Source: an uncultured delta proteobacterium
GTDB lineage: Bacteria; Desulfobacterota; Desulfobacteria; Desulfobacterales; JAFDCJ01
Reading direction: 5' to 3'
Assembly (NCBI GenBank): GCA_963769935.1
Contig: CAVYNY010000022.1
Span: 710,941 to 774,940, forward strand
DNA: 64,000 bases
The notes under the pieces were generated by a model. The model ran no database searches. It was not told the DNA's origin and saw only the letters and a list, made by a program, of their open reading frames with translations. Below, one piece after another: positions 20,057 to 23,000 of this stretch. Made by a program: the position numbers and the translations under genes. Each line of letters starts with the position of its first letter. Within the stretch, counting starts at the first letter, position 1.

Positions 20057-23000
20057 ATGGAAACTCTGTATGATTTCTTTGCAAAACCTACGGATCCGAA
20101 ACGCTACCAGGCGATTCGCCTGGCATTGGCTTCACCGGAGCAAATTCGAAAATGGTCCCATGGCGAGATTAAAAAACCGGAGACCATCAACTATCGAACT
20201 TTTAAACCGGAACGTGATGGTCTTTTCTGTGCAAAGATTTTCGGCCCGACCAAAGACTATGAGTGTAACTGTGGTAAATATAAACGCATGAAACACAGAG
20301 GCGTTATCTGTGAGAAGTGCGGTGTCGAAGTCATCCAATCCAAGGTGCGCCGGGAGCGCATGGCCCATATTGAACTGGCGACCCCGGTTTCGCACATCTG
20401 GTTTTTAAAGAGTTTGCCCAGCAAGATCGGCAATCTGCTTGACCTTACGCTTAAGAACATGGAAAAAGTGCTGTATTTTGACAGCTATATCGTGCTGGAT
20501 CCCAAGACCACCCCGTTGAGCCGGGGACAGCTGCTGTCCGATGACAAGTACCAGGAAGCACAGGAAACCTATGGTCCTAATTTTGAAGTCGGCATCGGCG
20601 CCGAAGCCGTCAAGGCCATGTTGGAAACCCTCAATCTGGATGAACTCTATAACGAACTGCGCATTGATATTCGCGCGACCGGATCGGTGGCCAAACGGCA
20701 AAAACTGGCCAAACGCCTTAAAATTGTCGATGCTTTCCGAAGATCAGGTGTTAATCCGGTCTGGATGATCATGGATGTGATTCCGGTTCTGCCACCGGAT
20801 CTGCGCCCCCTGGTACCGCTTGAAGGCGGACGTTTTGCCACATCCGATCTTAATGATCTCTATCGTCGGGTCATTAATCGCAACAACCGGCTAAAACGGC
20901 TGATTGATTTAAAAGCCCCCGATATTATCGTTCGCAACGAAAAAAGGATGCTGCAGGAGTCGGTCGACGTCCTGTTCGACAACGGCCGGCACGGCCGCGT
21001 CATCACCGGAACCAATAAGCGTCCCTTGAAATCCCTCAGTGATACGCTGAAGGGCAAGCAGGGAAGGTTTCGCCAGAATTTGCTGGGTAAACGGGTGGAT
21101 TATTCAGGACGGACCGTGATTACGGTGGGGCCCGATTTGCGGCTCCACCAGTGCGGCCTGCCGAAACAGATGGCGCTGGAGCTGTTCAAGCCTTTTGTGT
21201 ACTACCGACTCGAACAAAAAGGACTGGTGTCAACCGTTAAAAGTGCCAAGAAAATGGTCGAACGCGAAATTCCTGAAGTCTGGGACACCCTGGACGAGGT
21301 CGTAAAGGAATATCCGGTTTTATTGAATCGCGCGCCCACGCTGCACCGTTTGGGAATCCAGGCCTTTGAACCGATTCTGGTCGAAGGCAAAGCCCTGCAG
21401 CTGCACCCCCTTGTCTGTACCGCCTTCAATGCGGATTTTGACGGCGATCAAATGGCAGTGCATGTGCCGTTATCTGTGGAAGCTCAAATTGAAGCCCGGG
21501 TGTTGATGTTGTCCAGCAACAACATTCTGTCTCCGGCCAACGGCAGCCCCATTATTGTTCCGAGCCAGGATATCGTGCTGGGGATTTACTACATGACGCG
21601 GCACATTGTTGACCCCGAGGGCAAAGAAAATACCTTTGCCAACCCCGAAGAGGTTCGATCCGCCTATGATGCCGGGGCGGTGGGTCTGCATTCGAAAATT
21701 AAGCTGCGCATGTACGGCCAGCGTTATGATACCACGGTCGGCCGGGTGCTGCTGTGGGAAATCATTCCCAAGGTTGACATTGTGGAGATGCGCCACCTCC
21801 GGGTGGCGGCCGAAGAGGATGCCCGGCAGATTGTGGAGCGGCTCAGCGCCGGAGAGGCATTTGTCGATCTTGTGCGCGAATGTTCCCTGGCGGCCGACAA
21901 AGACAACGACGGCCTGCTCGGCAATCTGACCTTCAACGAATTTAAAAGTGTCTTCGGTTGTGATGATGCCGATGTGGAAATGGTCTATTCACTCAAACCC
22001 GGCGAGCACAGTATTGCCGCATTGCATGGCGATGCGGGCTATCATCTGTTTGAGGTGCTGGACAAAAAACCGGCGATCCCGTTTGATATCGTCAACCATG
22101 TCATGGACAAAAAGATGCTGCGGGAGCTGGTGGATTATGTTTACCGGAATCTGGGTCCCAAAGCCACGGTGATTTTATCCGACCGGTTAAAAGACCTGGG
22201 CTATAAATTCTCAACCCAGGGCGGACTTTCGATTTCAATCGATGCGATGATAACTCCCGACGGCAAGCAGGCCATCATAACAGATGCCGAGAATCAGGTG
22301 GCTGAAATCAGCCGCCAATATACCGAGGGGCTGATCACCCAGGGTGAAAAATACAATAAAGTGGTCGATATCTGGGCCAAAGCAACCGACGATGTTGCCA
22401 ACGAGATGATGGAGGCTATGAAGATAGATACGGTTCTGGATAAAGCCGGTAATCCCGTGCTCGATGAAAAGGGAGTTGCGCTTATTGGAGAAAGTTTTAA
22501 TCCGATATACATGATGGCTGATTCCGGAGCCCGGGGCAGCAAGGACCAAATGCGCCAACTGGCCGGTATGCGAGGCCTGATGGCCAAACCTTCCGGTGAA
22601 ATCATCGAAACCCCTATCGTGGCCAATTTCCGTGAGGGTCTGTCCGTGCTGCAATATTTTATTTCAACCCACGGAGCCCGCAAAGGTCTGGCCGACACCG
22701 CCTTAAAGACCGCCAATTCCGGTTATCTGACCCGCAGGCTGGCGGATGTTGCCCAGGATTGTGTCGTGCTGGAACAAGATTGCGGGACCATGATGGGCGT
22801 TGAGGTCGAGCCCCTGATGGAAGGCGGCGAAGTCATTCAACGACTTGGTGAACGGATTTTGGGACGCGTGGCGACTGAAGATATTCTCGATCCCTTCACG
22901 GAAGACGTTATCTGCAAAGGTGGACAGGAAATCGACGAACTTCTCGTGCAAAAGATCGAAGAAGCCGGTCTGAATCGACTTAAAATAAGATCGGTATTGA

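Follow-up and report, generated by a model that had tools for sequence, protein, structure and literature searches.

The rpoC locus and its in-frame insertion

The locus described here raises the question of how a domain resembling a prolyl isomerase came to lie inside a core subunit of RNA polymerase (RNAP), and what it might do there. The window, which is the whole stretch of 64,000 nucleotides that was analyzed, contains the usual rpoB-rpoC-rpsL cluster of an uncultured member of the Desulfobacterales. Within it, the intact rpoC gene (20057..24469, plus strand) encodes a beta-prime subunit of 1470 aa, which matches the Pfam domains Rpb1_1 to Rpb1_5 and the TIGR02386 profile (1751.6 bits; cut-off 963.5). 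The initial annotation of this DNA, made from the sequence alone, had called attention to about 100 extra residues (~572-672) in RpoC. Our analysis confirmed them: the span from the TTVGR motif to the D-x-LK-x-x-G[FY] motif comprises 158 aa here, compared with 58–72 aa in 19 parsed outgroup loci, so that 100 residues are extra. Bases 21770..22072 (plus strand) encode K572-P672 in frame, the peptide quoted earlier being V573-K671. The flanks align to residues 584 and 585/586 of the E. coli/Pseudomonas beta-prime, and PF04983 matches RpoC through profile positions 1–81 before the insertion and 109–160 after it, with positions 82–108 skipped. The open reading frame, the flank alignment and PF04983 thus all place the insertion in frame between conserved beta-prime segments, within the Rpb1_3 domain.

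Predicted parvulin fold of the insertion

The initial annotation had assigned these residues to the parvulin/PpiC fold from end to end, and had proposed a profile search of residues 572-672 against the Pfam Rotamase families. The isolated segment passed the cut-off of PF00639 (Rotamase; 28.4 bits against 21.7, E 3.4e-6), and among 56 diverse copies of the insertion 49 matched this family at E ≤ 0.001. When the whole RpoC was scanned against Pfam, the only signal over the insertion was Rotamase_3 at E 0.053, and a precomputed PF00639 label was present on only 11 of 120 listed homologues, which may be the reason why the insertion has been overlooked. Sequence matches in the PDB were parvulins and PrsA, while a search of the ESM Atlas returned generic Rotamase clusters only.

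An AlphaFold model of the insertion and its flanks, built with 30 sequences, had a mean pLDDT of 82.9, with values of 81–96 by blocks over the insertion. It predicts a parvulin fold, i.e., a four-stranded sheet with four helices, and could be superposed on B. subtilis PrsA (1zk6) with a Z of 15.1 and an rmsd of 1.6 Å over 91 residues (VIA-align), in agreement with Foldseek. Eighteen of the 19 top rows of the structure search were parvulin-bearing chains, the remaining row being a beta-prime matched through the flanks; among the matches listed, parvulins at Z 11–15 were found instead of BEAN or barrel-sandwich hybrid folds. The proposed fold assignment therefore holds at the level of profile and model. 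The insertion also carries 5–6 extra residues after the GxLG motif. These lengthen the pocket segment and are predicted to form a helix with two conserved aromatic residues (F629-K-S-V-F633; 21941..21955, plus strand), F629 being present in 121 of 131 copies and F or Y at 633 in 125.

Distribution of the insertion and exclusion of an artefact

We collected 131 distinct copies of the insertion from 152 loci, and the junctions are the same in all 131. They are also identical in 22 of 22 genomes of the same genus. A check for chimeric assembly had been suggested for this locus, and none of the sequences pointed to one: a metatranscriptome contig, which is not in itself proof of transcription, spans 21400-22500 in one gapless piece, and in the 4 of 21 listed runs that were examined, further contigs, from other runs, extend across both junctions and no contig joins the flanks without the insertion. 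The GC content of the insertion is 55%, compared with 52% for the remainder of rpoC. Inteins begin with Cys or Ser and end with His-Asn, followed by Cys, Ser or Thr; this insertion begins with K-V-D and ends with K-K-P followed by Ala, and no intein family was found in the Pfam scan. Each of the two tuf copies (window positions 25608-26868 and about 10255-11476) is interrupted by small indels, a single one in the second copy and several in the first, which probably reflect faulty assembly of a repeated gene. These indels would be the one feature in favor of an assembly artefact. Against the recurrence of the same junctions, the contigs from other runs, the similar GC content and the ends unlike those of an intein, an artefact or a self-splicing element is so improbable as to be negligible, and the spread across genomes already refutes the former.

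Among the 60 genomes of the class that are at least 95% complete, 58 carry the insertion: 57 match the insertion profile and one (G403) has a longer, divergent copy. The two without it are G327, where it was lost, and G424, which has a clean in-frame deletion. In a sample of 250 genomes of the phylum, the 8 from the same order matched end to end (E ≤ 1.9e-39), while no match to the insertion was found in the other 242, for which the best value among the best 150 matches listed was E 7.6e-19. A search of 1.84 billion representatives returned 11 RpoC pieces and two short fragments of the same kind among its best 150 matches; the remainder, 15 of which were checked against Pfam, were taken as free parvulin proteins. 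The named records that carry the insertion are mostly Desulfobacterales, Desulfobacteraceae, Desulfosarcina, Desulfatibacillum, Desulfatibia or unclassified Deltaproteobacteria. The view that the insertion is lineage-specific was thus borne out by a survey of rpoC across the Desulfobacterota, and the insertion proved to be ancient and order-wide in Desulfobacterales, not special to the source genome. Genomes in which rpoC was not found (G024, G036, G332 and G353) were excluded from the counts.

The record titles of three loci (L116, L154 and L161) name other phyla, which was not regarded as a sign of transfer: at the insertion, L116 is identical to a genome of the same genus and L161 is nearly identical to Desulfobacterales records. 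G407 and G164 have very long open frames, which are not rpoB-rpoC fusions. In other orders of the phylum, four genomes (G140, G176, G263 and G287) have RpoC open frames of 1658–1680 aa, which may reflect other large insertions or merely stop-free upstream frames.

A probable single gain followed by losses

To place the insertion on the host phylogeny, a quick IQ-TREE analysis of beta-prime without the insertion was performed with 42 rows. Family f155 branches first, followed by f8 (support 92) and then by f130 together with the crown (96), the crown itself being supported at 100. The insertion is absent from f155 (G337 and G386) and f8 (G029), the two deepest branches, and present in f130 and the crown. 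In the domain tree the 23 inserts form one clade (100/97) in which f130 is sister to all others, and the two trees agree at this deepest split, which argues for one gain followed by vertical descent.

Genomes G291, G308 and G327/G419 (and G381, by a separate analysis) are without the insertion yet nested in the crown and therefore represent losses, of which there are at least four when G424 is counted. In G424 (L303, contig C14, about 24075-24079) the loss is clean and in frame, and the DNA is 91–92% identical to that of the insertion-bearing G111; provided that its assembly is correct, G424 is a naturally occurring control for deletion. Badly eroded copies were found at L042, L101 and L296. 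Among the variant inserts (L092, L296 and L099), those of two genomes are longer by 27 and 14 residues, and in G308 a remnant of 24 residues is left. The G386 bin holds two different rpoC genes, L102 and L300, one without and one with the insertion; the insertion in the second gene is identical to that of another record, and this gene is likely contamination.

A PrsA-like lipoprotein as the candidate donor

In genome G000 the gene after mfd (L199:1195-1941; C11:530366-531112, minus strand) encodes a 248-aa SurA-N protein without a parvulin domain and is followed by surA. Judged by its signal sequence, this protein is likely a lipoprotein. The same form, a PrsA-like protein of which only the SurA-N chaperone module is left, encoded between mfd and surA, is conserved across the crown Desulfobacterales: of the 24 crown genomes for which the ORF adjacent to mfd was available, 23 encode there a SurA-N protein that has no parvulin, and in the remaining one SurA itself directly follows mfd (for five of these genomes the insertion state was judged from the length of the RpoC frame, and G024 is among the genomes in which rpoC was not found). 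The corresponding gene in 17 outgroup genomes is parvulin-bearing in 12, SurA-like directly in three, degenerate in one and broken in one, a set biased towards the parvulin-bearing state since the loci were chosen with a parvulin-bearing query. Genome G000 also encodes a 584-aa protein (L200; C17:133350-135101, minus strand) with a signal-like start, a SurA-N domain and two degenerate parvulin-like repeats without the His residues.

Only five of 161 genomes of the order (G337, G029, G370, G408 and G312) matched the lipoprotein with its parvulin strongly and over the full length (E ≤ 3.3e-62, the next best being 1.1e-35). These are the two deepest branches (G337 and G029), which have no insertion, and three f130 genomes, which have it. 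The domain is therefore located in the lipoprotein only in the two deepest branches, in both genes in f130, and in RpoC only in the crown.

We compared the inserts with a donor-family set of 21 rows, nine of which were chosen by similarity and not by a confirmed position beside mfd. An acid at site 614 is present in 19 of 23 inserts and in all 21 donor-family domains, compared with none of 16 paralogues and one of 18 database matches, or one of 34 when these other parvulins are pooled. Among the order loci scored, the six best non-RpoC domains belong to the lipoprotein family (44–62 bits), with others reaching up to 41. The domain tree, a thin one of 94 columns, separates the 23 inserts, all 21 donor-family rows and two unrelated database rows from the other 32 rows at 82/89. 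Grouping of the inserts with the donor family was not rejected by the AU test (p 0.46), which is a non-rejection and not a proof.

On these sequence comparisons, the insertion quite probably derives from the parvulin domain of the PrsA-like lipoprotein whose gene adjoins mfd. The domain would have been copied once into rpoC early in the order, passed through a stage with copies in both genes, as in family f130, and then been removed by deletion from the lipoprotein of the crown. We consider it rather unlikely that the source was another parvulin, e.g., one of the proteins with SurA-N and two parvulins with a long loop, and that the loss from the lipoprotein was coincidental. The free parvulins P0019 (67 bits) and P0014 (63) do outscore the best donor row (61.5), and these and P0018, at 60–67 bits, have the 5–6 residue loop in common with the inserts; the tree support for the lipoprotein is also moderate. 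However, P0019 and P0014 are of a different family and fall on the opposite side of the domain tree from the inserts, parvulins of the P0019 type group with other parvulins and have no acid at 614, and loss of the lipoprotein's parvulin maps to the branch that directly follows gain of the insertion.

Active-site residues and selection

The parvulin catalytic tetrad is C/D-H-H-T/S, and NmPin that has lost one or the other of the outer residues retains 0.7 or 3.5% activity (PMC4922055). The corresponding positions in the source RpoC are A612-H580-H663-G658, and the complete tetrad is present in none of the 131 distinct copies. Both His residues had been described as kept, and they are present in this RpoC; across the copies, the first one, His580 (21794..21796, plus strand), is found in only 98 of 131, with R in 15 and Q in 13, and is replaced by R, Q or C in 30, close relatives included. 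The catalytic Cys/Asp site is lost at Ala612 (21890..21898, plus strand, a stretch that includes Asp614, an acid also found in the likely donor family); in the alignment of 131 copies site 612 is D in 7 and C is not among its six commonest letters, while site 614 is D in 105 and E in 8. The catalytic Thr/Ser site is lost at Gly658 and the second His is kept at His663 (22028..22045, plus strand), with S or T at 658 in 30 copies and His at 663 in 121. In the donor family, C/D is found in 0 of 21 domains and T/S in 21 of 21, so that the Thr/Ser hairpin is constant there and randomised in the inserts. The changes noted earlier at the Cys/Asp site and the TQF motif were therefore seen again, as A612 and as G658-D-A at the hairpin. 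The suggestion that catalysis is weakened stands as regards the loss of the tetrad; given that the first His is kept in 98 of 131 copies and the full tetrad in none, the wording 'probably inactive' is more apt than 'weakened', and the insertion is probably no longer an enzyme. Both His residues and the Asp two places on from Ala612 are well kept, and an altered site of this kind could serve catalysis.

The best-conserved positions of the insertion are mostly residues of the fold core. In addition, residues particular to the family are kept (D614, E628, F629, F633 and D639), the pocket residues 621, 629 and 633 are hydrophobic across the inserts, and the mean net charge is about -7, compared with about 0 in the donor family. 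The measurement of dN/dS that had been called for gave a median of 0.16 for the insertion and 0.014 for the upstream core (from the 116 of 171 same-genus pairs whose dS was usable), indicating purifying selection. With at least four losses, the insertion is under selection yet dispensable.

Position on the polymerase

The insertion lies at the point where the beta-prime of cyanobacteria is divided into two proteins, and the RpoC2 of cyanobacteria and plastids begins where the insertion ends: position 3 of TIGR02388 (RpoC2) aligns to RpoC residue 679, and the RpoC2 structures 8syi_Z and 8w9z_c start with residue 5 at 671 and residue 6 at 673, respectively. Table 2 of PMC11515920 lists the archaeal beta'-aD2 insert, Rpo1N 561-598, in the same domain, and Rpo8 binds Rpo1N 507-596 according to the covered part of PMC2675907; the equivalence with the archaeal site was derived by way of domain tables and the gap in the Pfam profile, and not by aligning individual residues. 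The cyanobacterial split point and the archaeal insert at the PF04983 gap suggest a loop that is likely exposed and tolerant. From the alignment and these papers we infer that the insertion likely lies near the Rpo8/Rpb8 face, on the outer side of the polymerase. A longer beta-prime model (607 aa) had a pTM of 0.51 and was poor outside the insertion region, and a complex prediction of the insertion with two alpha N-terminal domains gave a score of 0.01 and a mark of 0.32.

Possible function of the insertion

The reading that we regard as most likely, with a little better than even confidence, is that the insertion is a folded, acidic and non-catalytic appendage, likely copied from the lipoprotein. 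Placed on the outer side of the polymerase, it would act as a binding or stabilising module that the cell can do without. Its kept hydrophobic pocket and acidic surface may bind a stretch of peptide, from the polymerase itself or from a partner, without isomerising it, and thereby aid folding, assembly or docking. Inactive parvulins with a peptide-binding site exist, and SurA-like chaperones work without their parvulin (covered part of PMC2956729).

A near-neutral passenger in a tolerant loop, one that binds nothing useful and is kept since a misfolded insertion would harm beta-prime, is a distinctly less likely account. It would explain the losses, one of them clean and within a genus, the eroded copies, the confinement of strong conservation largely to the fold core and the location at a natural split point; against it, the insertion persists in 58 of 60 genomes across a deep order though a clean deletion is possible, and the family-specific residues and the negative charge are kept. 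Less likely again is an active prolyl isomerase tethered to RNAP, in which the two His residues and Asp614 replace Cys/Asp and a polymerase loop or a transcription factor is isomerised. The frequencies of H580, H663 and D/E614 (98, 121 and 113 of 131) and the hydrophobic pocket are in its favor. Absence of the complete tetrad from every copy, randomisation of the hairpin that all donor-family domains keep, and the replacement of His580 even among close relatives argue against it; in Pin1 the His pair was reportedly described as structural (Bailey 2008). The appendage without catalysis therefore ranks ahead of both.

Two further candidates were rejected. Ribosomal protein L17 (window positions 41743-42579) has 278 aa and a long tail rich in Lys, Ala, Glu and Pro, the length of which varies widely across the order; as a partner of the insertion, the long Lys/Ala/Pro tail did not track with it across 44 genomes (frames of 127–327 in insertion bearers and 105–203 in others). 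The insertion does not replace omega, as rpoZ is present.

Relation to known systems and significance

Bacterial RNAP inserts in beta and beta-prime (beta'i2, beta'i6/SI3, BEAN and HABAS), as treated in the covered parts of PMC11515920 and PMC2939025, are likewise whole in-frame domains between conserved segments, confined to a clade and faster-evolving than the core. In those parts they are SBHM/HABAS, BEAN or sLC domains and none is a parvulin, and the beta'-uD3 loop that holds the Desulfobacterales insertion is not named among the seven beta-prime insert sites listed. Unlike the known inserts covered there, the present one has an identifiable likely donor gene and a both-copies stage. The parvulins of PrsA, SurA and PpiD (PF00639, PF13616 and PF13145) have in common with it the predicted fold, the His pair, the GxxF, GxLG and YHxF motifs, and attachment to the host chain by two close ends. 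In contrast to them, the RpoC insertion is cytoplasmic and inside RNAP, has neither the Cys/Asp nor the Thr/Ser hairpin, and has 5–6 extra helix residues and an acidic surface; in character, its nearest counterparts are the inactive domains found in PpiD and SurA. The archaeal beta'-aD2 insert with its Rpo8 site and the cyanobacterial RpoC1/RpoC2 split occupy the same place in the chain, with a fold unrelated to that of the RpoC insertion.

The initial annotation knew of no parvulin insertion in beta-prime, and none was found in the literature searched (parvulin in RNAP, lineage-specific insertion, Desulfosarcina rpoC); the catalogues of Lane and Darst 2010 and Iyer 2004 were outside its scope and could list one. 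Neither parvulin nor rotamase is mentioned in PMC11515920 (whole-text term search and one supplement) or in the covered passages and three supplements of PMC13114784. This order-wide RNAP insertion is apparently undescribed so far, and it extends the known RNAP inserts by a new class of fold.

The significance is limited in that the insertion seems dispensable. It can serve as a marker for most Desulfobacterales, and its natural deletions are ready controls. We also entertain, as a doubtful possibility, that a domain of an exported folding catalyst has become an integral module of the polymerase that binds peptides or isomerises prolines, at the site taken by Rpb8 in eukaryotes and by Rpo8 in archaea, i.e., a convergent, covalently attached accessory subunit; if this is true, living lineages show each step of the domain's move into a core transcription machine. 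The case is a rare one in that the likely donor gene, the both-copies stage and the later losses are all visible, so that the origin and adaptiveness of polymerase inserts become testable.
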